Below the pieces are notes generated by a model. It did not search any database. It was not told where the DNA came from and saw only the letters and a list, made by a program, of their open reading frames with translations. Shown in pieces: positions 7,445-59,408 of a DNA stretch of 64,000 nucleotides. The DNA is from Candidatus Faecicola pullistercoris (GTDB lineage: Bacteria > Bacillota > Clostridia > Christensenellales > CAG-917): the NCBI GenBank assembly GCA_018714105.1, contig DVNW01000003.1, positions 18,265 through 82,264 on the forward strand, written 5' to 3'. How positions within the stretch are numbered: the first letter of the stretch is position 1; each line of letters starts with the position of its first letter. A program made the position numbers and the translations under genes.

Positions 7445-7450
7445 CTCAAA

Positions 7451-7501: not shown

Positions 7502-7521
7502 ATCGTCGCCGTGGAAGTAAT

Positions 7522-28742: not shown

Positions 28743-30329
28743 ATGTTAAGTTTCAGAAAGAAAAGAAAAGAGGAAAACGCGGCCGAAGAAAAAGAGGCCG
28801 CAAAGGAATTTGACGCGTCCGTAGCGGAAGCGCCTTCCGTCGGGTTGCCGTCAGAGTCGGCAGGGGCGGAGGAAAACGGGGATTTGAACGGCGCCGTCGA
28901 CCTGATTTCCGAAAAAGAGGGAGAGGAAGAAGAAAGCCTTACGGCCGACGCACGGGCCGACGGGGACGGCGTACTTGCTTTTGCAGCGGAAGAGCCGTCC
29001 GCACCCGAGGCTGCCGTCCGTCCCGAAAAGGCGGAAAGCGAGGGACCCTCGTTTGAAAGCCGCCAGCTCGAACTCGACGCCAGAAAGAAGGAAAAAGACG
29101 GAGAAAAGAAAAAGCAGGAAATATTAAGCCGTATTCACAACGAGCGGCTTACCGAAAGGGAGATGGCGGAATATACGGCCAAACAGGCGGTAGAAAGGAT
29201 AGAAGAGTTTTCCAGAGCCAGATATTCGGGCACGGACAACGAGCGCCTTGCCGCGCAGAAAATAAGGGACATCGTAGAGGAAAGCACGGGGCGCACAGCC
29301 AGACTCGAACCTTTTAACGTGTGGCCTTTTGCCGGAAGGCTGGGAATACCCGTATACGGAATGGCCTATCTGGCCGTGCTTTTGCTGTATATCATATATC
29401 AGCCTTTGGGAATAGTTCTTATACCCGTTCTCGCCGCGGTTATGCTGGTGCAGATAAGGTATAACGGCAACGTGTTCAGCAGGCTTTTCCCAAGAAAGAC
29501 CTCGTACAACGTCGTTTCCGAATACAGACGCGGGGACAAAACCGTCAACACCGTTATACTCGGCTGCCGATACGATACCGATTACGACAAGCCCGTCGAC
29601 CATTTTCTGGGCAGGCACAAGACCAATCCCAAGGTCAAGGAAACGGGCATCTGGCTTATCCTTATAAGCATGGCGCTGACGTTCGTGTTTGCCGTAATAC
29701 TTTCGGCCGTCAAAAATCCGCCAAAGGCGCTTAAAATAGTTCTGTTGCTGATAAACGTAATCGTATCCGGCCTGGCGATAGCCTATATGGCTACTTATTT
29801 CAATTATTTCAAAGACGCAGCGAGAGAAAGCAGAGAGGGCCTTTCCGGCCTGGGTATAGGACTGGCGATTATGAAATATTATACTCTGCATCCGTGGGAA
29901 CTGCCGGACGGAACGAAACTTGTGTTTGCCGCTTTCGGTAGTTCGTTTGCGGGGAACAAGGGCAGCGAAGCCTTTATCAAGGCGCACAGAAAAGACGACC
30001 TTTTGGTAAAACCGCTTATCATCGACCTCGACAACATGCTGGACGGCGAGTACGCCGTAACGGTTGCGGATACAGGGTTTAAAACGGATTACAACGCAAA
30101 ACTCTGTTCGGCCGTGGCGGAAGGAATCAAAGCGGGCGGCGGACAGGTTATAAAGGAAAGCAGACACTTTTATTACAACGACGCTCTTCCTTTCGCGAGG
30201 AAAGGCTATGCGGCTGTTTGCGTCAGCAGAAAATCGGGACACAAAAAGCAGGAATACAAGGACTGCGCGGACACTTATTCGCAGATGCTTGCCGCCGTAA
30301 GGGAAAGCATAAACGGGCTGAAACAATAG
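28743..30329 (+). CDS. Membrane protein with degenerate M28 peptidase-like fold and acidic N-terminus
   Basis: SYNVV, VILGCRYDT, FAAFGSSFAGNKGS, IIDLD, NDALPF resemble M28 segments; four TMs. Confidence 0.55.
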   Translation: MLSFRKKRKEENAAEEKEAAKEFDASVAEAPSVGLPSESAGAEENGDLNGAVDLISEKEGEEEESLTADARADGDGVLAFAAEEPSAPEAAVRPEKAESEGPSFESRQLELDARKKEKDGEKKKQEILSRIHNERLTEREMAEYTAKQAVERIEEFSRARYSGTDNERLAAQKIRDIVEESTGRTARLEPFNVWPFAGRLGIPVYGMAYLAVLLLYIIYQPLGIVLIPVLAAVMLVQIRYNGNVFSRLFPRKTSYNVVSEYRRGDKTVNTVILGCRYDTDYDKPVDHFLGRHKTNPKVKETGIWLILISMALTFVFAVILSAVKNPPKALKIVLLLINVIVSGLAIAYMATYFNYFKDAARESREGLSGLGIGLAIMKYYTLHPWELPDGTKLVFAAFGSSFAGNKGSEAFIKAHRKDDLLVKPLIIDLDNMLDGEYAVTVADTGFKTDYNAKLCSAVAEGIKAGGGQVIKESRHFYYNDALPFARKGYAAVCVSRKSGHKKQEYKDCADTYSQMLAAVRESINGLKQ

Positions 30330-30384: not shown

Positions 30385-31548
30385 TCAGATGTCGAGTTTC
30401 ATGTCGCCGTCTTTTATATGGCCTTTCTTGCGCATGAGAAGGCATACCGCCCAGCTTATCACCGCAGGCAAGACGAACAGCAGCAGAATTATGCCCAGTG
30501 CCAGAGTCCAGTCGTTTATCACTCCCTTGCTGGCGTCTATGGTGCCGAACACGCCTACAAGACCGCTTGTACCCATGCCGCCGCCGGACGCGTTACATCT
30601 GAGCTTGAATACGCAGGTCGATACGGGACCGAGTACGGCGCTTGCAACTATGGGCGGAATAAAGATTTTGGGATGTTTCATTATATTCGGGATTTGCAGC
30701 ATGCTTGTGCCCAGGCCCTGAGCTATAAGTCCGCCGAATCCGTTTTCGCGGTAGGACATTACGGCAAAACCTACCATCTGACAAGCGCAGCCCACTACCG
30801 CCGCGCCTCCCGCAAGCAGCATGGCGTCGCTGGTATTGGTAGCGGCTATGGACACCCATATGGCCGCCGAAGAAGTGGGCATTGTAAGCAGAATGCCCAT
30901 TATAACCGCAATTATCACGCCCATTACGAAGGGCTGAGCCGTCGTGGCAAGCTCGATCCATGTGCCGAGCAGCTCGGTAAACCTTACGAAGGGCCATGCG
31001 ACGTAAGCCGCAAGTATGGACGAAAGCATGCAGGTAAGCGGAACGAGAAGAATATCAAGTTTGGTTTTTCCCGAAACGAGGGAAGACAGTTCTATCGCTA
31101 TAACAGAGCACACGTAAGCGCCTATCGGATTGCCGGGCAGGGCTTTGGAGAGAAGCGCGGTTATATCCGAAAGCGTTCCTCCCGTAAACGCGGCGCCCGC
31201 GCCTATGAACTGATTGGAAAACGCGCCTATAAAGCCCGCGACTATGGAAGCGAAAACCACCATTTTGGGCGCTTTCAGATGAGAGGCTATGCCCGCGCCT
31301 ATGCCCGCGCCCATAAGTATCGAGGCAACCTGTCCCGCAAAATACAGTATGGCGCCGAAAGAATTGTCAAGGCCTATGAGTTCGCCTATCGTCTTTAATA
31401 TCGTACCCGCTATCAGGGTTACGAAAAGGCCCTGCGCCATGCCGCTGAAAGCGTCGATGAAATATCGTTTTAAAAGACGTTTTGCCACCGCGCCCCAGCC
31501 TTTGCTGTCGGGATATTCCCACGATTTTTTAAAATTGGATTTTTCCAT
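30385..31548 (-). CDS. PTS EIIC-like (PfoR/PF13303-type) membrane protein
   Basis: GMAQGLFVTLIAG, LDILLVP, PTSSAAI, AQGLGTSMLQIPNI, GMGTSGLVG. Confidence 0.8.
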   Translation of the reverse strand: MEKSNFKKSWEYPDSKGWGAVAKRLLKRYFIDAFSGMAQGLFVTLIAGTILKTIGELIGLDNSFGAILYFAGQVASILMGAGIGAGIASHLKAPKMVVFASIVAGFIGAFSNQFIGAGAAFTGGTLSDITALLSKALPGNPIGAYVCSVIAIELSSLVSGKTKLDILLVPLTCMLSSILAAYVAWPFVRFTELLGTWIELATTAQPFVMGVIIAVIMGILLTMPTSSAAIWVSIAATNTSDAMLLAGGAAVVGCACQMVGFAVMSYRENGFGGLIAQGLGTSMLQIPNIMKHPKIFIPPIVASAVLGPVSTCVFKLRCNASGGGMGTSGLVGVFGTIDASKGVINDWTLALGIILLLFVLPAVISWAVCLLMRKKGHIKDGDMKLDI

Positions 31549-31746: not shown

Positions 31747-31775
31747 TTGAAAAAGATAAACGGATATGTTATGAT
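31747..31775 (+). promoter_or_regulatory. sigmaA promoter of the aminotransferase-transketolase operon
   Basis: TTGAAA-N17-TATGAT with TG extended -10. Confidence 0.65.
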
Positions 31776-31809: not shown

Positions 31810-32565
31810 ATGGACAATGTAACCAAGGCAAAAATCAATCTTTTTGCCGTATTACGCAACATGCAGGACCTGTGTGAAATGGACGCGCAATCCAAAGAAC
31901 TCATTAAAGATACCAAATTGGCGGTAGAGTTCAACGTACCCGACGTAGGCAGTGCGGTAATGAAGTTCGAAAACGGAAAATGCACTTTTACAAAAGGCAA
32001 GGGAAAAGCGGGTTTGAAATTATGGTTCACTTCGGCCGAGCATTTCAATAAACTTATCGACGGGGAAAAGACGGTACCCATTTTCATAAACGTTTTCAAA
32101 GTAAGTTTTCTTACCGGAATATTTACCAAACTGGCGGAACGCCTGACCTATTATTTAAAACCGACGGACGAGCTGCTTAAAGACGAGGATTATTTCAGAA
32201 TCAATACATACCTTACCGCGTATACCGCGTTCCACGCCCTCTGCGAGATAGGCAACAGCGACGAAATAGGCAAACTTAACGCGAGCAGAATTCCCGACGG
32301 CGAAATTCAGATGACCGTCGACGGCGGACCGCAGATGGTTATATCGGTAGACAAAAAGCATCGCCTTACGCCCTCTATCGGCACCAGCGCCAACCCCAGG
32401 GCTATTATGAGATTTTTCTCTTTGAAATCCTGCAACGACATTTTGAACGGAAAGTCCGATATATTCTCCGGACTCGGCGGCGGCACCTTTATGATTAAGG
32501 GATATCTGCCGATGTTAGACAATATGAGCAAACTGTTAAGTCAGGTAAGCAGATATTTGGCATAG
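31810..32565 (+). CDS. Hypothetical protein, tandem SCP2-like (lipid-binding) domains
   Basis: GGAGG RBS; two units of strand-strand-strand, xFxS-helix, ending ILNGKSD...GGGTFMIKG...L as in SCP2 folds (by eye). Confidence 0.55.
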   Translation: MDNVTKAKINLFAVLRNMQDLCEMDAQSKELIKDTKLAVEFNVPDVGSAVMKFENGKCTFTKGKGKAGLKLWFTSAEHFNKLIDGEKTVPIFINVFKVSFLTGIFTKLAERLTYYLKPTDELLKDEDYFRINTYLTAYTAFHALCEIGNSDEIGKLNASRIPDGEIQMTVDGGPQMVISVDKKHRLTPSIGTSANPRAIMRFFSLKSCNDILNGKSDIFSGLGGGTFMIKGYLPMLDNMSKLLSQVSRYLA

Positions 32566-32577
32566 GAGGTATTTGAG

Positions 32578-33858
32578 ATGAAATTTCCGATTAACGAATA
32601 TAAAAAGAGTAACGAACTGTATCAGAGGGCTCTTAAAGTAGTGCCCGGCGGCGTTTACGGCCACCTCGGCCCGTCCGAAGGCTGTGCTATACCCATTTCG
32701 GCGTTTCCCATATTCTCGTCCAAAGCCAAAGGAGCTTACTTCTGGGACGTGGACGGCAACAGGTTTGTGGATTATATGTGCGCTTACGGCCCCAACGTGC
32801 TGGGTTATAACGATCCCGACGTCGACGCGGCGGCCGCGGCTCAGCTCAAAAAGGGCAACTGCGTCACCATGCCCGGCGACGTAATGGTTCCTTTTGCCGA
32901 ACTTATGTGCGATACCGTAAACATGGCCGATTGGGTGGTTTTTGCCAAAAACGGCGGCGACGTTACTTCATACGCGGTCATGATAGCAAGGCAGGCAACC
33001 GCCCGAAAGAAAATACTTATGATAAAGGGCAGTTATCACGGCGTTGCGCCCTGGACGCAGAAACTCGGTCACGGCGGCATTATCCCCGAGGACGTATGCA
33101 ACAACCTTTACTGTACCTTTAACGATATAGAGGATTTCAAACGCGTAGTAGAAGCCAACAAGGGCGAGATAGCCTGCTTTATAACCACGCCTTATTCTCA
33201 TCCCATATTTACCGACAACGAACTTCCCAACGAAAACTGGTATAAAGAAGTACGCAGGATATGCGACGAAAACGGCATCGTGCTTATATTCGACGATATC
33301 CGTTGCGGTTTCAGGCTCAACGTAAAGGGCAGCGACTACCATTACGGCGTAAAGGCCGACCTGCAATGCTTCTGTAAGGCTCTCGCCAACGGATACAACG
33401 TATCCGCACTGTGCGGAACAGACGCACTCAGGGGTTACGCTACCGACGTTTACTATACCGGCTCGTACTGGCTGTCGGCCGAACCTTTTGCCGCAGGTAT
33501 CGCGTGTATTTCCAAAATGCTGAATACCGACAACTGGGGCGGAAAGCAGTTCCACGAATATATCAGGGCAAAAGGCGTAAAATTGCTGGACGGTCTCGTA
33601 GACGTGGCTAAAACCAACGGGTTCGACCTTGTAGTATCCGGCGAACCGGCGATGTGGTATATGCGTCTTAACAACGATTACACCACCATGTTGCATCAGG
33701 AATGGGTTGCCGAATGCGTCAAGAGGGGCGTGTTCTTCGTAAGCCACCACAACCACTTCATCAACGCGGCCCTGTCAGACGAGGATATTCAGTTTACCCT
33801 CGACGTTGCCGACGAAGCATACAAGGTAGTAAAGGCAAATCATCCTGAATTAGGCTAA
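32578..33858 (+). CDS. Class III PLP aminotransferase, FumI (aminopentol aminotransferase)-like
   Basis: PGGVYGH, DYMCAYGPNVLGY, ADWVVFAKNGGD, GSYHG, FDDIRCGFR, CFCKALANG (PLP Lys), TGSYWLSA. Confidence 0.8.
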   Translation: MKFPINEYKKSNELYQRALKVVPGGVYGHLGPSEGCAIPISAFPIFSSKAKGAYFWDVDGNRFVDYMCAYGPNVLGYNDPDVDAAAAAQLKKGNCVTMPGDVMVPFAELMCDTVNMADWVVFAKNGGDVTSYAVMIARQATARKKILMIKGSYHGVAPWTQKLGHGGIIPEDVCNNLYCTFNDIEDFKRVVEANKGEIACFITTPYSHPIFTDNELPNENWYKEVRRICDENGIVLIFDDIRCGFRLNVKGSDYHYGVKADLQCFCKALANGYNVSALCGTDALRGYATDVYYTGSYWLSAEPFAAGIACISKMLNTDNWGGKQFHEYIRAKGVKLLDGLVDVAKTNGFDLVVSGEPAMWYMRLNNDYTTMLHQEWVAECVKRGVFFVSHHNHFINAALSDEDIQFTLDVADEAYKVVKANHPELG

Positions 33859-33952
33859 AAACAAGGGTTTATCTTTGAATTTGCAGAGATAAACCCTGTT
33901 TATTTGCATTAATAATCAATTATTACAGACATATTTTAAGGAGGAAACATTT

Positions 33953-34822
33953 ATGGCTTTAACAAAAAAAGAATGGGTTGCCCTCGAAAACAAAGCCGCC
34001 GACCTCAGAGAGCTTTGTTTGGATACCGTCAAATGGGCCGGCAGCGGCCATATGGGCGGCAGCTTCAGTTCGGCAGACATTCTTACTCTTCTGTATTACA
34101 AATACGCTAATTTCGACCCCAAGGATCCCGAGAATCCCGACAGGGACAGAATAGTGGTTTCCAAAGGGCATATAGGTATAATACTTGCCCCGTTGTTCGT
34201 TCAGCTGGGATTGCTTGACAAAGAACAGCTCAAAACCTTCAACCTTACCGGAAGCAAACTGGGTATCCACCTCGACTGCAACAAGGTTAAGGGCTTGGAC
34301 AGCTCGACCGGTTCGCTCGGTCACGGCTCTTCGCTGGCGCTCGGCATGGCTCTCGCCGCCAGGGTAAAAGGTCAGAAATACAAGACCTTCCTCATACTCG
34401 GCGACGGCGAATGCGACGAAGGCTCCGTATGGGAAGCGGCCATGGCTACCGCTCACTTCAACGTAACCGACCTTATCACGATAGTAGACCGTAACCACAA
34501 CATGATAGACGGCAATACCGAAGACGTCATGAAGCTCGAACCCTTCGCCGACAAATGGACGGCTTTCGGATTCGAGACCATAGTAGTCGACGGGCATAAC
34601 ATGAACGCTTTGTCCGAGGCTCTCGACAAGGCATTCAAGGCAAAGGACAAACCCGTCTGCATCATTGCCGACACCGTAAAAGGCGAAGGCGTTTCCTTTG
34701 CGGCCGGAAATTACAAATGGCATTACGGCGCGCTTGACCAACCCAAGTACGAAACGGCCAAAAAAGATTTGGCCGAGCATCGCAAGATGAGAATCGAAAG
34801 AGCTGAGAAGGAGGGAATTTAA
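33953..34822 (+). CDS. Split transketolase, N-terminal (ThDP-binding) subunit
   Basis: SGHMGG, RDRIVVSKGH, STGSLGHG, GDGECDEG, DGH, TVKG. Confidence 0.92.
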   Translation: MALTKKEWVALENKAADLRELCLDTVKWAGSGHMGGSFSSADILTLLYYKYANFDPKDPENPDRDRIVVSKGHIGIILAPLFVQLGLLDKEQLKTFNLTGSKLGIHLDCNKVKGLDSSTGSLGHGSSLALGMALAARVKGQKYKTFLILGDGECDEGSVWEAAMATAHFNVTDLITIVDRNHNMIDGNTEDVMKLEPFADKWTAFGFETIVVDGHNMNALSEALDKAFKAKDKPVCIIADTVKGEGVSFAAGNYKWHYGALDQPKYETAKKDLAEHRKMRIERAEKEGI

Positions 34823-34824
34823 TC

Positions 34825-35835
34825 ATGGCTGGCGGATTAACATATACGGCGGTTGAAAGTACCAAAATGGCAACCGCGGAAATTTACGGTAAAACTCTTG
34901 TCGAACTGGGCGAGGAAAACCCCAATATCGTTGCTCTTACGGCCGACCTCGCTGGTTCTACCAAAATAGGCGAATTCAAAAACAGGTTCCCCGACAGATT
35001 CTTTAACGTCGGTATCGCCGAGCAGAACATGTACGGTACGGCGGCGGGTATGGCGAAATGCGGGCTTATTCCCTTTGCGTCGTCCTTCTCCGTTTTCGCG
35101 AGCCTCAGGTCTCTCGATCAGATTCACACCGATATCTGCTATCAGAACGTAAACGTTAAAATCATCGGTACGCACGGCGGCACCTCTTTCGGGCAGGCGG
35201 GTTCCACTCACCACGCCATCGAGGACTTTGCCGTTATCAGGGGCCTCGTAAACATGACGCTTATCTGTCCCGCGGACGGTATCGAAACGGGCCTCGCGGT
35301 AAGGGCTGCCGCTAACACCCCCGGACCGTTCTATATCAGAATAAACAGAGGTTTCGACCTTACCGTTTACAACACTTCGGATTACGGCTTCGAGGTAGGC
35401 AAAGCCGTTAAAATGGTTGACGGTACCGACCTTACCATCATCGCGTGCGGCTCTTGCGTATATCAGGCGGTTCAGGCTGCCAATATTCTGCAGCACGACC
35501 ACAAAATCAGCGCGAGAGTTCTTAACATGCATACCCTTAAACCTATCGACAGGGAAGCCATACTCGAAGCGGTTAAGGAAACCCGCCGTATAGTTACGGT
35601 TGAGGACCACACCGTTATAGGCGGCCTCGGCAGCGCCGTTGCCGAAGTTGTTGTCGAAGGCGGCAAGGCCTGCGCTTTCAGAAAGCTCGGTTTGCAGGAT
35701 AAGTTCTCTGCAATCGGCCTGCACGAAGACCTTATGGCTATGCACGAAATCGATGCCGAAGGTATCGTTAAAAACGTCCTCGAACTTATGAAGATGGACT
35801 TCGAAATGGACGAGGACTGGGGCGACGAGGTATAA
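34825..35835 (+). CDS. Split transketolase, C-terminal subunit
   Basis: ADLAGST, GIAEQNM, GSTHHAIED, TVEDH, GGLGSAV. Confidence 0.92.
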   Translation: MAGGLTYTAVESTKMATAEIYGKTLVELGEENPNIVALTADLAGSTKIGEFKNRFPDRFFNVGIAEQNMYGTAAGMAKCGLIPFASSFSVFASLRSLDQIHTDICYQNVNVKIIGTHGGTSFGQAGSTHHAIEDFAVIRGLVNMTLICPADGIETGLAVRAAANTPGPFYIRINRGFDLTVYNTSDYGFEVGKAVKMVDGTDLTIIACGSCVYQAVQAANILQHDHKISARVLNMHTLKPIDREAILEAVKETRRIVTVEDHTVIGGLGSAVAEVVVEGGKACAFRKLGLQDKFSAIGLHEDLMAMHEIDAEGIVKNVLELMKMDFEMDEDWGDEV

Positions 35836-35839
35836 TACT

Positions 35840-36676
35840 ATGGCAAAAGAAGTTAAAATCACTCAGGACGATTTGTATGCGGCCAGGATATTCTTTTATT
35901 CCGCTCTGCCGCTGCTGAAAGTCATTGCCGAGAGTGAGCCCAAATACGGCGACAAATTCAAAGGCAAAAGTTTTGTATTCCAGGTATCCGCGGCGTACGA
36001 AGGCGCGGAGGGCGGCAAAATGGCCACGCACTTTGTCGTTGAGGACGGAGTATGGACCACTTTCGTAGGGAAAGCGCACGAAGCGCCCGACGTTGAGTTT
36101 GCCTTTTCCGATCTGAAGAAGTTTATAATATTCTTCTCGGGCAAGGGTATGCCTCTTCCCAAAATCAAAGGCCTTACCAAACTCGGAGTGCTTGTCCCCA
36201 TACTCATGGCTCTGCTCAGAATGGCCGGGCTTTTGCAAGCGAAGGACGCACCCAAAAAGGACGAGGATCAGCAGATGCTCGTAAAACTTTACTTCTATCT
36301 GCTGCCCAACGGAATATCTCAGCTCAACAAACTCGGCCACCCCGAGGCCAAAGCCTTTACCGGGCCCAGCCCCGACCGCGCTTACGCGTGGGAAGTAACG
36401 GGTTATCCCGAGCTTAAATCCTGGCTCAGGATAAAGGCCGGCAACAGCAAGGCGGGCAGAGGAGAATATCAGCGTTGCAAACCCTTTTTGACCATGCGTT
36501 TCGACAGCACTCAGCATGCCCTCGACATACTTATGTCCAAAGGCGATATGATAGAGTACATGTCCAAAATGTGGCTTATTATCGACGGCGCGCCCGAATT
36601 CGGAGCCGTGCTGGGAGACCTTATGATGCTTGTAGGCTACTATGCCCAAGGCACTTATTTAGACGCGGCAAAATAA
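35840..36676 (+). CDS. Hypothetical protein, tandem SCP2-like domains
   Basis: HFVVEDGV...PDVEFAFSD and MRFDS...DILMSKGD...IIDG units parallel 31810..32565. Confidence 0.5.
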   Translation: MAKEVKITQDDLYAARIFFYSALPLLKVIAESEPKYGDKFKGKSFVFQVSAAYEGAEGGKMATHFVVEDGVWTTFVGKAHEAPDVEFAFSDLKKFIIFFSGKGMPLPKIKGLTKLGVLVPILMALLRMAGLLQAKDAPKKDEDQQMLVKLYFYLLPNGISQLNKLGHPEAKAFTGPSPDRAYAWEVTGYPELKSWLRIKAGNSKAGRGEYQRCKPFLTMRFDSTQHALDILMSKGDMIEYMSKMWLIIDGAPEFGAVLGDLMMLVGYYAQGTYLDAAK

Positions 36677-36687
36677 ATTTAAAAGTC

Positions 36688-36715
36688 AAAAGCGGGGTTT
36701 TAAGCCCCGCTTTTG
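36688..36715 (+). terminator. Intrinsic terminator ending the transketolase operon
   Basis: AAAAGCGGGG-ttttaag-CCCCGCTTTT. Confidence 0.7.
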
Positions 36716-36733
36716 CACAACTTAAAGGTTAAT

Positions 36734-37348
36734 ATGGCAATAAATTCATTGATTCTTGCGCTGACCGAGGCGCAAAGCACGGGTATTATGATGGGCGTTA
36801 TGGCCGCCGTAATACTCATTTTACTTGTTATCAAACTGTTGGGTACCTCTTACGGCGACCAGCACGTTTCCGACGGTTACCGCTTTATGAAAGAAGGCGA
36901 CTACGACAAGGCCGCTTTCCATTTCGAAAAGGCGATAAAGTCGGGAAAGTTCAAAAAACTTAAAATCCACAACGCTTACGAAGGTCTTGCGGAAACCGAA
37001 CTTTATCGCAAGAATTACGACCGCGCGGCAGAAAAGGCAAACGAAGCGCTTCTGCGCCATACGGAAGACAGCGCGGCGTATAACATTCTCGGCAGAGTGT
37101 ATTCCGAACAGGGCGACAGCCGGAAAGCGGTGGAAATGTTTCTCAAGCAGAGTCAGATAAAGGAAGATACCGATTGCTACGTTCTTCTGGCTTTCGAATA
37201 CGCGAGACTGGGCGACGAAAAGCAGGCAAACATAGCCGTCAACAACGCTCAGCGGCTCAAACATCCCGATATTAAAGAAATGCGCAAGGACATTAAGCGC
37301 ATCCTGAACGAGTCAAAAAGAAAAACCTCGGCAAAACAGGAGAAATAA
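36734..37348 (+). CDS. Membrane-anchored TPR protein
   Basis: One TM followed by TPR-like repeats (GDYDKAAFHFEKAI; AYNILGRVY..QGD..KAVEMF). Confidence 0.75.
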   Translation: MAINSLILALTEAQSTGIMMGVMAAVILILLVIKLLGTSYGDQHVSDGYRFMKEGDYDKAAFHFEKAIKSGKFKKLKIHNAYEGLAETELYRKNYDRAAEKANEALLRHTEDSAAYNILGRVYSEQGDSRKAVEMFLKQSQIKEDTDCYVLLAFEYARLGDEKQANIAVNNAQRLKHPDIKEMRKDIKRILNESKRKTSAKQEK

Positions 37349-37350
37349 AC

Positions 37351-38292
37351 ATGGTTAAAGCAGTAATTCTCGACGGGCATACAGTGAAGGGCGAGGACCT
37401 GAACTTCGACGCGATAAGGTGGCTTGTTGACCTTACGGAATACGACAATACCTCAAAAGAACAGGTAATCGGCCGTGTAAAAGGGGCTGAGATTGTGTTT
37501 ACCAACAAGGTGATTATAGATAAAGAGGTTATGGACGCCTGTCCCGAGCTCAGGTTTGTCGCGGTTTTCGCCACGGGCTATAACGTCGTGGATGTTAATT
37601 ATGCCAAAGAAAAGGGCATAACGGTCAGCAACGTACCCGCTTACAGCACGGACAGCGTCGTGCAGATGACTTTTGCGCTTATTTTGGAACTTGCGGTGCG
37701 CGTCAGCGTACACGCCAAAGCCGTTGCCGACGGGGAATGGAAAAGCTGTCCTTATTTCTGCTTCTGGAAAACGCCGCTTACCGAACTCAGCGGAAAAACC
37801 CTGGGCATAATAGGTTACGGCAGCATCGGCAAAGCCGTGGAAAAAGTAGCAAAAGCATTTAATATGAATGTGCTTGTACACAACCGCACGCCATTTGCGG
37901 GAAGCGTGGAACTCGAATATCTGCTGGAAAATTCGGATATAGTCAGTCTGCATTGTCCGCTTACGGCCAAAAACGCGAAAATGATAAACGGCGACGCTTT
38001 GGCTAAAATGAAAAAAACGGCTTTTCTGATAAATACGGCACGAGGCCCTCTTGTGGACGAACAGGCGTTGTATCAGGCCCTTAAAAACAAGGATATTGCG
38101 GGAGCCGCTCTGGACGTCATCGAAAAAGAGCCCATGGCGGCGGACAACAGGCTTGCCGAGCTTGACAACTGCGTCATTACGCCGCATATAGCATGGGCCA
38201 CCAAAGAGGCGAGATCGAGGCTGATAGAGATAAGCGTCCGAAATTTGAAGGGCTACCTTGACGGAAAGCCGATAAATACGGTAACCGGCTGA
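37351..38292 (+). CDS. D-2-hydroxyacid (glycerate/hydroxypyruvate reductase-like) dehydrogenase
   Basis: ATGYN, NVPAYST, GIIGYGSIG, HCPLT, INTARG, TPHIAW. Confidence 0.9.
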   Translation: MVKAVILDGHTVKGEDLNFDAIRWLVDLTEYDNTSKEQVIGRVKGAEIVFTNKVIIDKEVMDACPELRFVAVFATGYNVVDVNYAKEKGITVSNVPAYSTDSVVQMTFALILELAVRVSVHAKAVADGEWKSCPYFCFWKTPLTELSGKTLGIIGYGSIGKAVEKVAKAFNMNVLVHNRTPFAGSVELEYLLENSDIVSLHCPLTAKNAKMINGDALAKMKKTAFLINTARGPLVDEQALYQALKNKDIAGAALDVIEKEPMAADNRLAELDNCVITPHIAWATKEARSRLIEISVRNLKGYLDGKPINTVTG

Positions 38293-38367
38293 AACCCAAA
38301 TCCCCGCGCGGGGATTTTTATTTTGAAAAAAGGAATGGTTTTAGGATTATAGCGCATAATAACGCCG

Positions 38368-38814
38368 ATGAATAAAACCGCAGTTTTATATTTAATACTG
38401 TTCGCGGCGGTCGCGACGGCGTTCGCGATTCCGGCGGAAGGAGAAAGGGCAATGGCTATTACCGTGGATTTCGAAACGGTCGGAGACGGATACGTCAGGC
38501 TGTTCGAAGAAAGGATTTTATCCGAAAAAGTCGTATCTGGAAAAAGCGCGGAGGAAATAGAAGATATTGCCCGAAAGCTTAAAGTAAGCCCGCGAAAGGC
38601 AAAATGCCTGATGTGTCTGCGCGCGGCCGTTATGGACGGCGGAGGGGAAATAACCCTTGAAGAGCTTGCGCGAAAGAGCGACGCCGAACTTACAGGGATA
38701 TTTGTTTCTTATTATAAGGAAAAGGCCAAAACCATGTCGCGGCAGCAGAAAAAAGCAGTGGGCGAGGAGTTCAGGCGGCTGAAAAGGGAAGAGCCTATAA
38801 AAATCAAACTGTGA
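38368..38814 (+). CDS. Hypothetical protein, possibly secreted
   Basis: Signal-peptide-like N-terminus; alternative start at ATG 38452 after AAGGAG. Confidence 0.5.
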   Translation: MNKTAVLYLILFAAVATAFAIPAEGERAMAITVDFETVGDGYVRLFEERILSEKVVSGKSAEEIEDIARKLKVSPRKAKCLMCLRAAVMDGGGEITLEELARKSDAELTGIFVSYYKEKAKTMSRQQKKAVGEEFRRLKREEPIKIKL

Positions 38815-38857
38815 TTTTACAGCTGCAAAACGCGGCATAAAATACCGTTTATGCAAT

Positions 38858-38887
38858 AAAAAAGCGGCGCCGAAGCGCCGCTTTTTA
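38858..38887. terminator. Bidirectional terminator
   Basis: AAAAAGCGGCGC-cgaa-GCGCCGCTTTTT. Confidence 0.78.
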
Positions 38888-38895
38888 TTATTTTT

Positions 38896-39540
38896 TTATT
38901 TGGTACGAATGGTTTTAATAAACAGAGAGTAAAGAAGTTCGTCCGAAAATTCCTTCGCGCCGGTTTTTTCCAGCACGGTTTTGACGATATATTCGCGGCA
39001 GCCTTCTTCCAGAACGCGGATTGCCTCGAATGCGTCTTCCACCGTGGCTCCGCAGGCGAACACGCCGTGGTTGGCAAGGAAACAGCCGTTACGGTCTTTC
39101 AGGGCTTCGAGAGTGTTGGCCGTGATTTTTTTGGTGCCGGGAAGGCCGTATTTGGCGCATCTGGCTTCGCCGCCTATATATTTTGCCATTCTGTCGTTCA
39201 TTACGGGAAGGGATTTCCTCGTGGAGGCAAAGATACTGCACTGAGTGGGGTGGCTGTGAAGCACTACGTTTATTTCGGGTCTGTCGCGGAGTATGGCGGC
39301 GTGGATTTTTCTTTCGCTGGTGGGTTTTTTGGGGCCCGTCCATTCGAGGGTGTTTATGTCCACTATAGCCATGTCTTCGGGCGTCAGGGTGATATAATCC
39401 AGTCCGCTGGGAGTTACCAGCATGCGGTTTTCGTCGAGGCGTATGGAGATATTGCCCCAGGTTCCCTGAACGAGGTTTTCTTTAAGCATATCGACGCCGG
39501 CCTGTTTTACGGCACAGCGCAGTTCGTATTCGTTAGCCAT
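38896..39540 (-). CDS. Class II aldolase (L-fuculose-1-phosphate aldolase-like), catalytic residues intact
   Basis: GTWGNIS, TPSG, PTSE (catalytic Glu), HSH, LANHG zinc ligands. Confidence 0.88.
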   Translation of the reverse strand: MANEYELRCAVKQAGVDMLKENLVQGTWGNISIRLDENRMLVTPSGLDYITLTPEDMAIVDINTLEWTGPKKPTSERKIHAAILRDRPEINVVLHSHPTQCSIFASTRKSLPVMNDRMAKYIGGEARCAKYGLPGTKKITANTLEALKDRNGCFLANHGVFACGATVEDAFEAIRVLEEGCREYIVKTVLEKTGAKEFSDELLYSLFIKTIRTK

Positions 39541-39550
39541 AAGTCCCTCC

Positions 39551-40219
39551 TTAATTGTGTTCTTCGTTCATTTTGGCCGCCTGGTTGGCTTTGCTGTACT
39601 TCTTCTTGTAGATGAAGCGTTGCAGATTGGCGTCCAGAAATCCGAGTGATACGCAGCCGCCTATTATCGTCCCTTCTATAAAGGTCTTGGCGGCTTTTTC
39701 GAGAACGAGACAGGCGGTATAGGCTTCGTCGAGAGTCCTTCCGCTGCTGAGCATTCCCTTGTTTCTGACCAGGCAGGCGTTACGTCCTTTAATGGCTTTG
39801 AGCACGTATTCGCACGTAAGGTCCTGCGCCGTTTTGATATTCGCGCCCACAATCTGCGACATATCGTCGAGAACGGGAGGAATGGTAACGCCCTCGTTTG
39901 CGCAGACGCAGGCGTTGACGGGCTGAGTATGCATAATGGCACCCGTTTCGGGCTGAGCCTTATAGATACCGGTATGTACGGCTATTTCGGCCTTTTCCTT
40001 TTCGGAGACGTTTGCCGACCCGAAGAAGGATACGTTTATGATGTCGGCTTCGGTCAGATTTGCCAGATCCGCGCCGTGCCTGGTGATATACATTGCGCTT
40101 TCGCCTTCTTTTACGCTAACGGTGCCGTTTTCGCCCACGAGGTTTTCGTCGGAGAGTTTTTTAGCGTATTCTATAATGGCCGCAACAAGAGTTTTGTTCA
40201 TTTTAAAGTTCTCCTTCAA
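39551..40219 (-). CDS. Class II aldolase-family paralog with degenerate zinc site
   Basis: Same fold pattern but HTQ in place of HxH and RNKG in place of NHG. Confidence 0.75.
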   Translation of the reverse strand: MKENFKMNKTLVAAIIEYAKKLSDENLVGENGTVSVKEGESAMYITRHGADLANLTEADIINVSFFGSANVSEKEKAEIAVHTGIYKAQPETGAIMHTQPVNACVCANEGVTIPPVLDDMSQIVGANIKTAQDLTCEYVLKAIKGRNACLVRNKGMLSSGRTLDEAYTACLVLEKAAKTFIEGTIIGGCVSLGFLDANLQRFIYKKKYSKANQAAKMNEEHN

Positions 40220-41732
40220 ATCGTTTGGAATTGGCGGCTTTGTAAGTCGACGCCAGATTTTTGTAGATTGCCTTATAGGTTTTGAACAGAGGATTGTAGA
40301 TATCGGCGTTACGCGCGTTGGGGGTATACGTTTTGGTGATTTTCACGAAGTCCCTGGCGTCTGAAAAGCTTTTGAGTTCGCCGAGGCCTATGAGAGCGAT
40401 AATCGCGCAACCCAAAGCGCCTGCGTTTCTGGGGTTGTCGACTATGGAAAACTCGGTGTTGGTAATATCGGCTATAATCTGCATCCAGGCGTTGTCTAGC
40501 GCGCCGCCGCCGATAATACGGAAGCTTTTACAGCTGAAACCGTAATCCTTTTTAAAGTTTTCGAGAATCCATCTGAGGTTATAAGCTACGCCTTCGTAAA
40601 CGGCGCGCATCAGATGTTCTCTGGTATGAGTCGGGTTGATGTTGAACAGGGTGGCTCTAGTGGTGGTGGAGCTTACGGGACAGCGTTCGCCCATCATCCA
40701 CGGCGTGCAGATGAGGTAGTCGCTTCCGGGGGCGATGGTATTGATGACTTCGTCCATATAAGCGTAAATACCTTCGCCTTTTTCCTGTTGTTCGGTTTTG
40801 AAGAACTGGTCGCACAGCCATTGAATGTTGCTTCCCGCGGCTTCGGTTATGCCCGCGATAAGGTTCATTTCGGGGTCCGCGCTCTGTATAGCGGCCGCGC
40901 CGTGTTTAAAGGCCGTGGCCGTTTTGGAAGTTGCCGCCACCCATGCCGAGGTGCCGAGGTAAATGTGAATATCGCCGTCGCCGTTCATTCCGCTTCCTAT
41001 CGCCGCCGACTGAACGTCGTCGCATCCGCCGAATACCGGAATGCCTTCGACAAGGCCCATTTCTTTGGCCGCTTCTTCGGTAAGACCGCCTACGTTGTCC
41101 GTGCTTTTTACGAGAGGGGGAAGTTTATTCATATCTAGCCCCGTAAGACGCAGCACGCTGAGCCACGTCTTCTTTTTGAGGTCGAGGCCGTAAGACGAAG
41201 CGCCGGACAGTTCGAATACCATGCGTCCCGTGCAACGGTATTTGAGATAGCCGTTAACGTCGAGTATGTATTTGGTATGATTGTAAATGTCGGGCCGCTC
41301 TTCTTTGAGCCAGATTATTTTTGCGATGCAGTCCTTACCCATTATAGGCGTGCCCGCAACCAGGGTAAACAGTTTTTTGCCGCCCAGTTTTTTCATGATT
41401 GACTGAGCCTGTTTTTCTGCGCGCGCGTCTACCCACGTAATATTGTTGTAAAGGCAGTTGCCTTTTTCGTCCATGGGTATTACGCCCTGTGCCTGCGTGG
41501 AAAATATTATGCCGCCTATATCCTCGGGAGAAATACCCTGAGAAGATATTATGTCGCGCGTGGACTGACAAACGGCTTTCCAGTAGTCTTCGGGATCCTG
41601 TTCCACCCAGGCGGGGTAGGGATAATACGTGGGATAAGGCGCGACCTTGGTGGCTATGATTTTACCGTCATAGCTCACCAGAACGGCCTTGTCCGAACTT
41701 GTACCTATATCGTGTGCAAGTATGTATTTCAT
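40203..41732 (-). CDS. FGGY-family carbohydrate kinase
   Basis: DIGTSSDK, EQDP, WVDAR, GTSAW, GERCP, RAVYEGV, GGGA. Confidence 0.92.
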   Translation of the reverse strand: MKYILAHDIGTSSDKAVLVSYDGKIIATKVAPYPTYYPYPAWVEQDPEDYWKAVCQSTRDIISSQGISPEDIGGIIFSTQAQGVIPMDEKGNCLYNNITWVDARAEKQAQSIMKKLGGKKLFTLVAGTPIMGKDCIAKIIWLKEERPDIYNHTKYILDVNGYLKYRCTGRMVFELSGASSYGLDLKKKTWLSVLRLTGLDMNKLPPLVKSTDNVGGLTEEAAKEMGLVEGIPVFGGCDDVQSAAIGSGMNGDGDIHIYLGTSAWVAATSKTATAFKHGAAAIQSADPEMNLIAGITEAAGSNIQWLCDQFFKTEQQEKGEGIYAYMDEVINTIAPGSDYLICTPWMMGERCPVSSTTTRATLFNINPTHTREHLMRAVYEGVAYNLRWILENFKKDYGFSCKSFRIIGGGALDNAWMQIIADITNTEFSIVDNPRNAGALGCAIIALIGLGELKSFSDARDFVKITKTYTPNARNADIYNPLFKTYKAIYKNLASTYKAANSKRFEGEL

Positions 41733-41756
41733 AATTTACCTCTTACGCAAGGGGAT

Positions 41757-43253
41757 TTATTTGTCGAGAGGACGTTTGCACTCTTCTACGGTGGCGAAGA
41801 CTTTTTCGAATCTGTCGAGAGCCGCGTCTACGACTTCGTCGGTATCCGCCATAGAGGTGTACAGCCTGCTGCCGGCAAGAGTGATGATTCCGTTTGCCGC
41901 ATACGCCGCGCCCATCTGTTCCATAGCCGTCTTTCTTCTCATCATTTCGTCCTTGTTTTTGAGCATGGGAATTACGGATTTAAGCAGGTTCATGCTGGAA
42001 TAGTCGTAACTCATTGCGCCCGTGCATTCGAGGTGAACGATAGAACCCTGGTTGTAAGCCACGAAAGGCAGACCGTATTTGGCAATCAGCGCTTTGAGAC
42101 CGGCGGTGATTCTGTCGCCGGCCTGACCGGCCTTTTCGCAAGCGTTGGTTTCGGCTATTGCCTGTATGCAGCAGTATCCTGCGAAAGCGGACAGGGGGTT
42201 GGCCGCGAGAGTGCCGCCTACGTAAGCTCTCTTCATCATGGTGCCTACGCCGGCCGCCATGCATTTTACGAGGTCGGCTCTGCCGCCTACGCCGCCGGCT
42301 GCGGGATATCCGCCCGCGATAACTTTACCGAATATGGTAAGGTCGGGTTTTACGTTGAAGTAGCCCTGAGCGCCGCCCAGACCTACGCGGAAGCCCGTAA
42401 CGACTTCGTCGAAGATGAACAGCGCGCCGTATTTGTCGCAAAGTTCCCTTACGCCTTTGTTGTAATCGAAATCGACGGGACGGGTGCCGCTTTCGGGACC
42501 TACGGGTTCAACTATAACGGCCGCGGTGCCGCCTTTAAGTTTGTTGCGTCTGAGCATCGCTTCGAGCATGTTAAGATCGTTGGGTCTTACTTCGTCGGTA
42601 GTGCCGTAGCAGCCCTTGGGTATGCCGTGAGATTCGAGGAAGCTGCGGCTTCCGGGGATTTTCAGGCCGTAAACCATCTGATCGCTCCAACCGTGGTAAG
42701 CTCCGCCGATTTTGATGATTCTCTTTTTCTTGGTAGCGCAGCGGGCTATTCTGATAGCGGCCATTACGGATTCGGTACCCGAACCGAGCATCCTGAACAT
42801 TTCTACGTTGGGCATGTGCTTGTTGATTTCTTTGGCAAGCAGCAGTTCGGCTTCGTGGAAAAGACCGGTAACGGGGCCGCATTCTTTGACAAGCGCCATT
42901 ACTTTTTCCTGAACGGGCTTGTAATTGCTGCCGAGTACGGTGGGACCGCCGGCCTGTAAAAAGTCAAAGTATTTGTTTCCGTCGATGTCGTATAAGTATG
43001 CGCCTTCCGCCTTAACCATGCAGAGGGGGAAGGGATAGTTGAACGCCAGGTTGTGCTGAACGCCGCCGGGGATATAGTTTTTGGCCTCGGTGGTAATAGC
43101 CTTGGATTTGGCGCACTTGGTTTCGTAGTGTTCGAGAACGTCTTTCAGCGCCTGGTCCGATATGCACCATATAGGCTTGCTGGTTAATTCTTTCAGTTCC
43201 TTGTAAATTTCGGATGCGGGTTGCCATTTGCTGATTGCGTATCCGTTGCTCAT
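41757..43253 (-). CDS. Class III PLP aminotransferase (GSA-aminomutase-like fold) with N-terminal extension
   Basis: IPGGVQHN, GAYLYDIDGN, SGTES, GAYHG, FDEVVTGFR, IFGKVIAGG, GGTLAANP. Confidence 0.88.
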   Translation of the reverse strand: MSNGYAISKWQPASEIYKELKELTSKPIWCISDQALKDVLEHYETKCAKSKAITTEAKNYIPGGVQHNLAFNYPFPLCMVKAEGAYLYDIDGNKYFDFLQAGGPTVLGSNYKPVQEKVMALVKECGPVTGLFHEAELLLAKEINKHMPNVEMFRMLGSGTESVMAAIRIARCATKKKRIIKIGGAYHGWSDQMVYGLKIPGSRSFLESHGIPKGCYGTTDEVRPNDLNMLEAMLRRNKLKGGTAAVIVEPVGPESGTRPVDFDYNKGVRELCDKYGALFIFDEVVTGFRVGLGGAQGYFNVKPDLTIFGKVIAGGYPAAGGVGGRADLVKCMAAGVGTMMKRAYVGGTLAANPLSAFAGYCCIQAIAETNACEKAGQAGDRITAGLKALIAKYGLPFVAYNQGSIVHLECTGAMSYDYSSMNLLKSVIPMLKNKDEMMRRKTAMEQMGAAYAANGIITLAGSRLYTSMADTDEVVDAALDRFEKVFATVEECKRPLDK

Positions 43254-43265
43254 TTTTCTGACCTC

Positions 43266-43844
43266 CTAATAATTCTTTAAAAAAGTTATGAATTTGTTTA
43301 TGCTTTCTTTTATCTCAAAGTCGGACGAAAAGTCCTCCTTATAAATAAACTTCTGAAATATCAGCCCGTAGTAGACGCCCATGAGAATGGCCGACAGCTC
43401 TTTCGGCGAAAACTGTTCGGAAAGCCCTTTGAACCCCGACCTTTCGGTAATGGACTTTTGCAGGTACAGATCGATTTCCTTGAAGGAATTGTCTTTTTTG
43501 CTGAGAATGCCGCGCATAAGCAGTTCGCCCGTAAGGTAAGGATAGGGGAAGGTGTCGTCCACCAGGCGGAACAGCATCGACCGCAAAGGAAATCCTTTGT
43601 CCGACGCGACCGCGGCTTCGAGCATATCGTTTATTTCCTGCGAGGCGATTTCTTCAAGCAGCTCGTCAACCGAGCCGAAATGGTTGAAAAAGGTTGACCG
43701 CGAGACGTCGGCGTGTTCGCTTATTTCGTCTATGGTGGTTTTATCAATACCCTTTTGTTCGAACAGAGTTTTTGCGCTGTGCAAAATAGCTTTGTGGGTA
43801 TTGTTCTTTTTTCTTAACCGTCTTGATTGCTGTTGATTTTCCAT
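43266..43844 (-). CDS. TetR/AcrR-family transcriptional regulator
   Basis: ILHSAKTLFEQKG...TTIDEISEHADVSRSTFFNHF. Confidence 0.9.
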   Translation of the reverse strand: MENQQQSRRLRKKNNTHKAILHSAKTLFEQKGIDKTTIDEISEHADVSRSTFFNHFGSVDELLEEIASQEINDMLEAAVASDKGFPLRSMLFRLVDDTFPYPYLTGELLMRGILSKKDNSFKEIDLYLQKSITERSGFKGLSEQFSPKELSAILMGVYYGLIFQKFIYKEDFSSDFEIKESINKFITFLKNY

Positions 43845-58424: not shown

Positions 58425-59408
58425 CTATTTTCTTCTTATGCCTAATTCGTCGGCAACTTCCAACAGACGGTCTACGTCGGCTTGTTCCTGCCTGCCGTGG
58501 ATATTCGGCGCAACGTTAACCACAAGGGTATTGCCTTGGCTTGTCAGCAATCTGTATTTTTCCGCTATAAAGTCTTTGCTTACAAGTTTGTCCGAAGTGT
58601 AGCCAGGGTCCCAGAACCAGTTAGTCATATTGCGGATACATATCGTGGCTTCGAAAGGCAGGTAGTACCTTTTGCCCCTGTACGTATATAATTTGGGATC
58701 GTTTTTTGCGGTAAAATGAGGATCCAGCAATCTGAAATCACTGGGGAAATATCTTATGGGCATACCTTCTTTGTAATTTTCGGGGAAAAATTTTTTTAAC
58801 GTTGTTTTGGTCCACGGGTAGCCTATCGTAACGTTTACAGCCGTGGCGCAGTCCGGCTGCAGCGTGTGCACAAGGTCGTATATTTTAGGGACGTTCCATT
58901 TGCGCGGACGTTTATCCCAGCCGCCGTCAAGCCATAATTCAGCAATCTCACCGTATCTGCCGTCCAGTAGCTCCGTAAGCTGAGCGCACATATATTCGAC
59001 GTAACGCGTATCGTCCTTGTAACATTTTTCGTGCCTGTCCCACAGGGAATAGTACAACCCGAGCTTTATGCCGTATTTTTTACAGGCTGTCGCCACGGCG
59101 GCAACCACGTCGGTTTTGTTCGGAGAATTGTTTACGCAATAACTTGTCGTCGTTGTATCCCACAGGCAGAAGCCGTCGTGGTGTTTGGTGATGAGGATGA
59201 CGTAATTCATTCCTGCGTTATATGCGTTTTTAATCCAACCGTCTGCGTCTATGCCGGAGGGATTGTAACTTCTGACGGGCAGTTTGCCGTCGGACCATTC
59301 CGTGTCGTTGAAGGTGTTTATGCCGAAGTGGATAAACATTCCGTATTTACGGTTTATCTGAGCTTGTTGGCAGGCGTTGGGCGCGTCGGACGGGGCCAGC
59401 GTTATCAT
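58425..59408 (-). CDS. GH29 alpha-L-fucosidase (catalytic domain only, no signal peptide)
   Basis: GMFIHFG, KHHDGFCLW, GLYYSLWD, YGEIAELWLDG. Confidence 0.85.
   Translation of the reverse strand: MITLAPSDAPNACQQAQINRKYGMFIHFGINTFNDTEWSDGKLPVRSYNPSGIDADGWIKNAYNAGMNYVILITKHHDGFCLWDTTTTSYCVNNSPNKTDVVAAVATACKKYGIKLGLYYSLWDRHEKCYKDDTRYVEYMCAQLTELLDGRYGEIAELWLDGGWDKRPRKWNVPKIYDLVHTLQPDCATAVNVTIGYPWTKTTLKKFFPENYKEGMPIRYFPSDFRLLDPHFTAKNDPKLYTYRGKRYYLPFEATICIRNMTNWFWDPGYTSDKLVSKDFIAEKYRLLTSQGNTLVVNVAPNIHGRQEQADVDRLLEVADELGIRRK

Follow-up and report, generated by a model that had tools for sequence, protein, structure and literature searches.

Diet, hosts and microbes are all rich sources of sphingoid bases, lipids with antimicrobial activity whose breakdown by bacteria, above all by anaerobes, is barely known. 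The described routes lead to a fatty aldehyde and run either through sphingosine kinase and sphingosine-1-phosphate (S1P) lyase, a pyridoxal phosphate (PLP) enzyme, or, as in sphBCD of Pseudomonas aeruginosa, through a periplasmic oxidase and cytochrome c. In the available part of the sphBCD work, sphBC are described as protecting against sphingosine, sphinganine and phytosphingosine, and the sphingosine metabolite is said to have resisted identification (PMC11398299). The subject here is a pair of convergent gene strings, operon A (31810–38814, plus strand) and operon B (38896–43844, minus strand), delimited by calls of open reading frames (ORFs) and Pfam domains in the 1.6 Mb, 98.4%-complete genome of Candidatus Faecicola pullistercoris (Clostridia; Christensenellales). 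Both lie within the window, the whole stretch of 64,000 nt that was analysed (contig DVNW01000003.1, positions 18,265 to 82,264), to which coordinates refer. Operon A has no kinase, no lyase and no oxygen-linked step, and we put at roughly 40% the probability that its core genes, A1 to A5, serve a lyase-independent cleavage of hydrophobic 2-amino-1,3-diols of the sphingoid-base type; substrate class and fatty aldehyde product would then be shared with the known routes.

The closest characterised relatives of its enzymes belong to two other systems. FumI of Sphingopyxis sp. MTA144 (PDB 6hbs and 6hbv), itself of class III, is the relative of known structure that comes closest to the aminotransferase A2; in the accessible portion of its description it deaminates hydrolysed fumonisin B1 at C2 and prefers pyruvate (PMC3136697). 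That substrate is a long-chain amino-polyol that mimics sphinganine, and the preference for pyruvate is paralleled by alanine dehydrogenase genes near operon A in three related loci. FumI comes, however, from an aerobic alphaproteobacterium and from a fum cluster with carboxylesterase and tricarballylate genes, for which the same portion reports no SCP2 or transketolase partner and gives no onward fate of 2-keto-HFB1 (PMC3136697). DesAB, the steroid-17,20-desmolase of Clostridium scindens and relatives, resembles operon A in being an adjacent pair of split N- and C-terminal transketolase subunits from gut Firmicutes, and one that cleaves the C–C bond beside the ketol of a lipophilic molecule. 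The des operons, rare at 44 in 2.23 million genomes, are set apart by their description, in the sections available, as carrying the hydroxysteroid dehydrogenase genes desC or desE and the transporter gene desD, and no aminotransferase or SCP2 genes (PMC12876203). Operon A has the split transketolase, no hydroxysteroid dehydrogenase of the short-chain (SDR) or medium-chain (MDR) type, and a D-2-hydroxyacid dehydrogenase (A7). In the literature, supplements lying outside the scope, no description was found of a transaminase–transketolase route, of a transketolase acting on sphingoid bases or of one together with SCP2 proteins and an aminotransferase; nor, in its open part, of the later steps of the fum cluster.

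Enzymes and SCP2-like proteins of operon A

Two convergent operons, each with its own class III aminotransferase and C–C cleaving enzyme, had been described in the original prediction, and the ORFs and Pfam domains agree with it. For operon A it had listed an SCP2-like protein, an aminotransferase, a split transketolase and a second SCP2-like protein; these core genes are as described, but the operon runs on through genes for a tetratricopeptide repeat (TPR) protein, a D-2-hydroxyacid dehydrogenase and a 148-aa protein, with intergenic gaps of 2–94 nt. None of the proteins of either operon reaches an NCBIfam cutoff.

Judged by full-length similarity, A2 (32578–33858, plus strand; Aminotran_3) is an aminotransferase of the FumI type, that is, aminopentol aminotransferase-like, and stands clearly above other class III subfamilies. 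Its best PDB match is FumI (6hbs; E = 3.7e-91, 309 bits, full length) and the next is glutamate-1-semialdehyde aminomutase (GSAM), at 159 bits. The A2 family is large, with at least 4238 proteins at E ≤ 1e-40, and homologs of 61–64% identity, bearing generic names only, are found in cultured Vallitalea spp., Lutispora saccharofermentans and Paramaledivibacter caminithermalis. A HemL identity was rejected both for A2, which scores 218 bits against a cutoff of 398 and 196 against 527 with the NCBIfam models for GSAM, and for B2, the aminotransferase of operon B (297 against 398 and 275 against 527). It had been remarked earlier that no heme genes accompany these hemL-like folds, and this holds genome-wide: ALAD and GlutR_N have no match in the 98.4%-complete host genome, while controls matched in 11 and 10 of 14 genomes. 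Because the host genome lacks the C5 tetrapyrrole pathway (no hemA or hemB), neither A2 nor B2 is HemL.

A3 (33953–34822, plus strand; Transketolase_N) and A4 (34825–35835, plus strand; Transket_pyr and Transketolase_C) are the N-terminal subunit, which holds the thiamine diphosphate (ThDP)-binding PP domain, and the C-terminal subunit of a split transketolase. Together they carry the full PP/Pyr/TKC set (PF00456, PF02779, PF02780) with the ThDP/metal motif, and the closest structures are those of the split transketolase of Carboxydothermus hydrogenoformans (6yaj and 6yak, with 275 and 226 bits; A3 matches 6yak). Domains, ThDP/metal motif and catalytic histidines are shared with these and with the canonical enzyme. 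In an alignment of A3/A4 and 25 relatives with E. coli TktA (L072), whose numbering is used here, A3 keeps the equivalents of H26, H66, H100, H261, D155 and N185, and A4 keeps S385, H461, H473 and R520; H26, H66, H100, H261 and H473 are conserved in the window and in all 25 relatives. What separates the pair from canonical transketolase is an altered substrate funnel, in which R358 is replaced by alanine (Ala18 of A4), D469 by alanine (Ala125), L466 by phenylalanine (Phe122) and, in A3, G262 by tyrosine, and these changes are kept across the family linked to S278 (the family of A5). Position 358 is Ala in 41 of 43 relatives and Ser in the other two, position 469 is Ala in 39 of 43 and Gly in four, and position 466 is Phe in every one of the 25 relatives aligned with the E. 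coli enzyme. The six transketolases that adjoin an S278 homolog, in the window and five other genomes, all have Ala or Gly at 469, whereas both of those without a neighbouring S278, one in the host genome and one in the L099 genome, have Asn. The 469/466 pattern extends to more distant S278-adjoining transketolases but not to two split pairs without S278.

The meaning of these positions comes from the E. coli enzyme, for which the consulted part of one source gives R358, S385, H461 and R520 as binding the substrate phosphate, D469 as hydrogen-bonding a sugar hydroxyl and selecting the stereoisomer, and the His-rich motif as hydrogen-bonding substrate hydroxyls (PMC11387542). In the parts available of two others, mutation of R358, S385, D469 and R520 opens the enzyme to non-polar aldehydes (PMC7661550, PMC5073344). 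The phosphate-binding set is incomplete in A4, R358 being replaced and the other three residues retained. By these residues, A3/A4 would have retained ketol chemistry on a 1,3-dihydroxy-2-ketone head and would expect nothing polar from C4 onward. A housekeeping transketolase identity was rejected for A3/A4 on account of the family-wide active-site changes, and the pair scores below every cutoff of the NCBIfam transketolase models.

The host genome has a second split transketolase-like pair outside the window (genome G000, contig C18, about 58835–60620), with H461 replaced by Asp, D469 by Asn and S385 by Ala. No canonical transketolase was found in a Pfam search of this approximately 98%-complete genome, the C18 pair being non-canonical as well. 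A genome of the same family (locus L099, G009 C3, 4822–10294) has two split pairs back to back. The active site of one is of the C18 type and that of the other of the S278-linked type, and the latter pair precedes a highly diverged S278 homolog (27% identity); the aminotransferase and S251 (the family of A1) lie on the opposite strand.

The proteins flanking these enzymes, A1 (S251; 251 aa, 31810–32565, plus strand) and A5 (S278; 278 aa, 35840–36676, plus strand), match no Pfam or NCBIfam model, even at E = 10, hence no sequence match to PF02036 either, and are collinear distant paralogs (22% identity, E = 0.006). Their earlier assignment as SCP2-like, which is invisible by sequence, agrees with AlphaFold2 models (predicted local distance difference test, pLDDT, 91.9 for A1 and 92.8 for A5) searched with Foldseek against the PDB. 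Both models match sterol carrier protein 2, UbiJ-SCP2 and the SCP2-like domain of alkylsulfatases with a probability of 1.00, template modelling (TM) scores by target of 0.5–0.69, and E-values down to 4e-4 and 1e-5, the latter for A1; in one ESM Atlas neighbour cluster, 20% of members carry PF02036. As modelled, A1 and A5 are thus SCP2-like at the level of the fold. They differ from the known carriers (SCP2, the SCP2 domain of UbiJ, the C-terminal domain of alkylsulfatases) in being two-lobed and about twice as large, the helix–strand pattern occurring twice in each, and in forming a small family of their own, with 201 representatives (E ≤ 0.001) in a set of 1.84 billion proteins. The S278-type family gave 589 matches in a word search, all 'hypothetical' wherever named, and is sporadic: of 400 genomes sampled from the class, eight have a member. 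The presentation of a lipid to soluble enzymes by an SCP2 protein has a precedent in UbiJ, and a lipid-binding carrier role for A1 and A5 may be proposed from the models.

A closer association of A5 with the transketolase is hinted at by two further results. The word search gave a single, partial match of 527 aa to an S278 fusion, and a profile search found one natural fusion of tkC with S278 (tkN and tkC being the genes of the N- and C-terminal subunits), the 601-aa P0358, a single metagenomic gene call that could be a merged gene pair. This distant homolog shares 39% identity with A4 in the transketolase part and 27% with A5 in the S278 part, and its residues at 358, 469 and 466 are Ser, Gly and Phe. 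Prediction of a complex of tkN and tkC with S278 scored 0.57, 0.46 and 0.37 (median 0.46), against 0.00 for the best of three controls, with at least 80% of contacts shared between runs and a partner pLDDT of at least 88. The mark for this score is reached by 58 of 80 solved complexes and by two of 110 mismatches, passes at or below 0.60 being mostly wrong unless the pairing is already likely, and weak support is accordingly the grade given to a physical pairing of A5 with A3/A4.

Related loci, 56 in number, came from a pattern scan of species-representative genomes, with gene presence scored by tblastn. In every one with upstream sequence, tkN, tkC and S278 occur together, S278 coming after tkC. 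S251 and the aminotransferase are never found one without the other: 42 loci have the pair, eight lack it and six are cut by contig ends. Since S251 travels with the aminotransferase and S278 with the transketolase, each enzyme appears to have an SCP2-like partner of its own. Identity among the operon A proteins of close homologs is high (58–80%). Three of the loci with the transketolase–S278 core and no aminotransferase are in metagenome-assembled genomes of termite-gut Christensenellaceae (L029, L031, L032); they are flanked upstream by a gene for a BrxL-like protein and downstream by genes for a 402-aa protein with no Pfam match and a GH38 alpha-mannosidase.

Neighbouring genes elsewhere were assigned to families by Pfam scans of one representative per BLAST cluster, on ORFs called by a crude longest-ORF rule that are sometimes antisense. 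They include a 2-hydroxyacid dehydrogenase of the A7 type downstream of A5 (21 of the 56 loci), a MerR regulator just upstream (nine loci), an ene-reductase-like Fe-S flavoenzyme of the OYE plus Pyr_redox_2 type (eight of 56, and L098), a transporter of the major facilitator superfamily (MFS; five loci), alanine dehydrogenase (three), an MdlD-like aldehyde dehydrogenase directly after S278 (three), an aldehyde:ferredoxin oxidoreductase (L041, L045 and L098) and DegV (11 loci, in three different arrangements). The ene-reductase-like proteins have BaiCD and bilirubin reductase as their best models, below cutoff. As indirect support, these neighbours fit the release of a hydrophobic aldehyde or enal and the recycling of alanine to pyruvate.

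Substrate and direction of operon A

The core could then work as follows. A2 would move the C2 amine of the substrate to an oxo acid, probably pyruvate, giving a 1,3-dihydroxy-2-ketone, and A3/A4 would split this between C2 and C3 with release of a fatty aldehyde, the C2 ketol unit going by way of ThDP to an acceptor. A1, with A2, and A5, with A3/A4, would be dedicated two-lobed SCP2-like carriers that hand over the water-insoluble substrate, and in other lineages the aldehyde or enal would be handled by the adjacent ene-reductase, aldehyde dehydrogenase or aldehyde:ferredoxin oxidoreductase. From the gene content, folds, homology, active-site substitutions and gene-order covariation observed here we infer the identity of the substrate, a catabolic or detoxifying direction, an acceptor and the carrier role. 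This model of lipid amino-diol cleavage is the most economical fit to five independent observations (the fold, the likeness to FumI, the funnel substitutions, the pairwise covariation and the neighbours). The original prediction of a lyase-independent sphingoid route in this branch gains from the SCP2 folds, FumI likeness, loss of R358 and D469 and neighbours elsewhere, while its sphingoid substrate and catabolic direction keep the standing of inference.

Several points weigh against sphingoid-base cleavage. Transketolases form and split ketols of the (3S) configuration, but the ketol expected from natural D-erythro sphingoid bases is (3R); H26, whose mutation inverts the selectivity of the enzyme, is conserved in A3. 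Split transketolases, too, keep the (S)-selectivity in the available part of a report on them (PMC13663882). The identity of A2 to FumI is only about 38%, from a hand count on the printed match line, and the enzyme functions rest on homology. Retention of S385, H461 and R520 would allow an anionic or phosphorylated partner. Eight of the 56 loci have the transketolase and S278 but no aminotransferase, so that the ketol must arise there in another way. The window and the Christensenellales-type loci have housekeeping genes as neighbours, and neither a transporter nor an aldehyde dehydrogenase, an ene-reductase or a dedicated regulator adjoins the operon there. No ceramidase or other sphingolipid-specific gene was found, the search with PF04734 being uninformative, as its control matched no genome. 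The complex prediction carries the weak grade given above and the fusion was found only once. Finally, every step is reversible, and the direction is therefore not fixed by the data.

The alternative that survives best, although it is unlikely, is that the operon acts on some other hydrophobic amine or ketol: a 1-deoxy amino alcohol of the fumonisin or AAL type, an aromatic amino-diol, or a steroid ketol side chain. The last recalls DesAB, a split transketolase of gut Clostridia that cleaves the side chain of cortisol in the sections of its description that were available (PMC12876203), and sterols are also carried by SCP2 proteins, going by PDB titles. The best models of the neighbouring ene-reductases would also suit such a substrate. 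Corticosteroids are unlikely, however, in the termite gut, digesters, soil, groundwater and marine isolates from which carrier genomes come, and there is no hydroxysteroid dehydrogenase gene of the desC or desE type in the operon. A 1-deoxy base would follow the substrate of FumI itself, which is one and has the 3S configuration, and the loci without an aminotransferase indicate that a ketol can be the entry substrate. The retained His-rich motif, in which histidine binds the C1 hydroxyl of the donor, would nevertheless favour a 1-hydroxy ketol over a methyl ketone, and the aminotransferase is present in 42 of the 50 informative loci.

Sphingoid-base cleavage might also be turned around, although we regard this as improbable. 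With hydroxypyruvate or a ketose phosphate as the donor, the transketolase would extend a fatty aldehyde, bound to an SCP2-like carrier, by a C2 ketol unit, and amination of the resulting ketone by the aminotransferase would give a sphingoid-like 2-amino-1,3-diol lipid independently of serine palmitoyltransferase in anaerobic Clostridia. Both reactions are reversible, the canonical (3S) stereochemistry is no problem in this direction, and an engineered transketolase–transaminase cascade to 2-amino-1,3-diols is known, of which the operon would be the natural counterpart. The D-2-hydroxyacid dehydrogenase that follows the operon in 21 of the 56 loci could make hydroxypyruvate, and small genomes of the Christensenellales type place the operon among housekeeping genes, with no regulator or transporter; the high protein conservation fits as well. 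In several lineages, however, the neighbours (aldehyde dehydrogenase, aldehyde:ferredoxin oxidoreductase, ene-reductase, MFS, and MerR or TetR proteins) look catabolic or detoxifying. The closest characterised aminotransferase, FumI, is catabolic, no fatty acyl reductase was seen beside the operon, and the family is sporadic (eight of 400 genomes of the class), unlike a core membrane-lipid pathway.

Slightly less probable again is a soluble amino sugar or amino-polyol as the substrate, with the SCP2-like proteins in a non-lipid role as scaffold or regulator. The retained phosphate-site residues S385, H461 and R520 would fit, lipid binding by A1 and A5 is read from the fold only, and a gene for a PTS_EIIC_2 permease (30385–31548, minus strand) lies divergently upstream of operon A in the window, as it does in L022, L030, L051, L067 and L099. 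That gene is limited to one lineage, however, and could reflect lineage synteny or be the transporter of the pathway. Two dedicated SCP2-fold proteins per operon, the replacement of R358 and D469 by Ala or Gly, of L466 by Phe and of G262 by Tyr, and an aminotransferase that is FumI-like and not amino-sugar-like all speak against a soluble substrate. The cleavage of hydrophobic 2-amino-1,3-diols remains the reading preferred here for module A, the core A1 to A5.

Operon B

The original prediction gave operon B a TetR regulator, an aminotransferase, an FGGY kinase and two class II aldolases, which is what the locus holds, except that one of the aldolases, B4, has lost metal ligands. B1 (43266–43844, minus strand; TetR_N) is the TetR-family regulator, and B2 (41757–43253, minus strand; Aminotran_3) is a class III aminotransferase similar to GSAM and D-phenylglycine aminotransferase. 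B2 is 27% identical to A2, and FumI is not among its PDB matches at E ≤ 1e-35. B3 (40203–41732, minus strand; FGGY_N/C) is an FGGY sugar kinase resembling xylulokinase, with 332 bits for TIGR01312 against a cutoff of 380, so that the XylB cutoff is not attained. B5 (38896–39540, minus strand; Aldolase_II) is FucA-like with an intact metal site: it keeps E73, H92, H94 and H155 of FucA, has Asp for Y113, and scores below the NCBIfam cutoffs. In its degenerate paralog B4 (39551–40219, minus strand; Aldolase_II), two of the three FucA metal ligands are lost, histidines two and three being replaced by Gln and Lys, so that by these residues only B5 looks catalytic. Perhaps B4 serves B5 as a partner without catalysis of its own; ORF calls in several other genomes give one aldolase-family protein of 332–403 aa instead of two genes.

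B2 has orthologs (51–81% identity) in 12 of the 399 genomes sampled from the class. Of these 12 loci, 11 also have an FGGY kinase gene and nine, among them the window, a TetR gene; most have genes of the class II aldolase family. Three of the 12 (L089, at 6531–7844, L095 and L096) have, at the position of the aldolase beside the B2-type aminotransferase and FGGY kinase, a gene for an MtnW-like RuBisCO-like protein (RLP; 391 bits against a cutoff of 409). Transporters near these loci are of the MFS, SNF and GPH types, with a sugar-binding periplasmic protein of the ATP-binding cassette (ABC) type and Bmp. Comparison can be made with the L-fuculose and 5-deoxypentose modules of the dihydroxyacetone phosphate (DHAP) shunt, which likewise combine a sugar kinase with a class II, FucA-like aldolase, and, through the RLP, with MtnB and MtnW of methionine salvage. 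Module B, as operon B and its counterparts may be called, differs from these in adding a GSAM-like aminotransferase and a degenerate aldolase paralog and in reaching no family cutoff, and no match for the cassette was found in the literature. The RLP gene at the place of the aldolase in those three loci points to an undescribed pathway of ketose phosphates in which aldolase and RLP steps can stand in for each other. Module B is most likely a separate TetR-controlled cassette for a soluble amino-polyol or amino-ketose, whose logic may run from amine to ketose to phosphate ester to cleavage.

The idea that operons A and B are two branches of one sphingoid system fails on co-occurrence, the check that the original prediction itself had proposed. 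Operon B stands beside operon A in only five of the 56 loci, all with the same greA synteny, and four of these five B copies have no kinase. Two of the 11 other B-bearing genomes of the class sample have an A-like locus, on different contigs, and the overlap between the B cassette (12 of 399 genomes) and the S278 family (eight of 400) consists of the host genome and those two. Nothing ties operon B to lipids: it has no SCP2 partner, its transporters are of the sugar and amine type, and B2 is not FumI-like, which leaves phytosphingosine unsupported as its substrate. That branch B degrades phytosphingosine by kinase and aldolase to DHAP and pentadecanal is thus very improbable, even though the operons are adjacent and convergent here and in the loci just counted, the FucA-type metal site of B5 would by the D-erythro stereochemistry of such enzymes fit D-ribo-phytosphingosine, and an MdlD-like aldehyde dehydrogenase occurs in two B loci, since the limited overlap, the missing kinases, the SNF, MFS, GPH and ABC transporters in place of an SCP2 partner, and the RLP in place of the aldolase all stand against it. 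A two-branch system is not supported, and A and B are better seen as two unrelated modules.

Other features and significance

Upstream of operon A there is a promoter-like site (31747–31775, plus strand; TTGAAA-17-TATGAT with an extended TG), which is a consensus match only. The 94-nt gap between A2 and A3 holds a hairpin with a 14-bp stem (33864–33897, plus strand), seen as a pattern match only, and this is possibly an internal attenuator that uncouples the expression of the two halves of the operon. A terminator-like hairpin (38859–38886; 12-bp stem with seven GC pairs, and a T-tail) separates the convergent operons; an Rfam search found no riboswitch or leader upstream of either operon, its sole sub-threshold matches falling on this hairpin. 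Beyond the core, A6 (36713–37348, plus strand; Pfam) is a TPR protein found in three of the 56 loci only (L022, L030, L051), apparently a lineage-specific accessory, and A7 (37351–38292, plus strand; Pfam) is the D-isomer-specific 2-hydroxyacid dehydrogenase, below the NCBIfam cutoffs. A8 (38368–38814, plus strand), of 148 aa with a hydrophobic N-terminus, has no assigned function, and weak homologs in L022 and L030. Further upstream, a gene at 28743–30329 (plus strand) encodes a 528-aa protein that matches neither Pfam nor NCBIfam; its N-terminal third is acidic and of low complexity, it has several hydrophobic segments, and weak homologs (30–31% identity) occupy the same position in L051 and L067.

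Operon A is conserved and unstudied, and its proposed role in the cleavage of lipid amino-diols is plausible though unproven. The cultured carriers of close A2 homologs, in Vallitalea, Lutispora and Paramaledivibacter, make the hypothesis testable now, and FumI-like enzymes from anaerobes may be of interest for detoxifying mycotoxins that are sphinganine analogues. If the proposal is true, a major class of lipids would have a new pathway free of kinase, lyase and oxygen, in which transamination precedes a ThDP-dependent cleavage. It would extend lipid-cleaving transketolases beyond the steroid desmolase and assign a function to the small, unannotated family with the double SCP2 fold, and it could account for the ability of some Clostridia of gut and sediment to tolerate or use sphingoid lipids.

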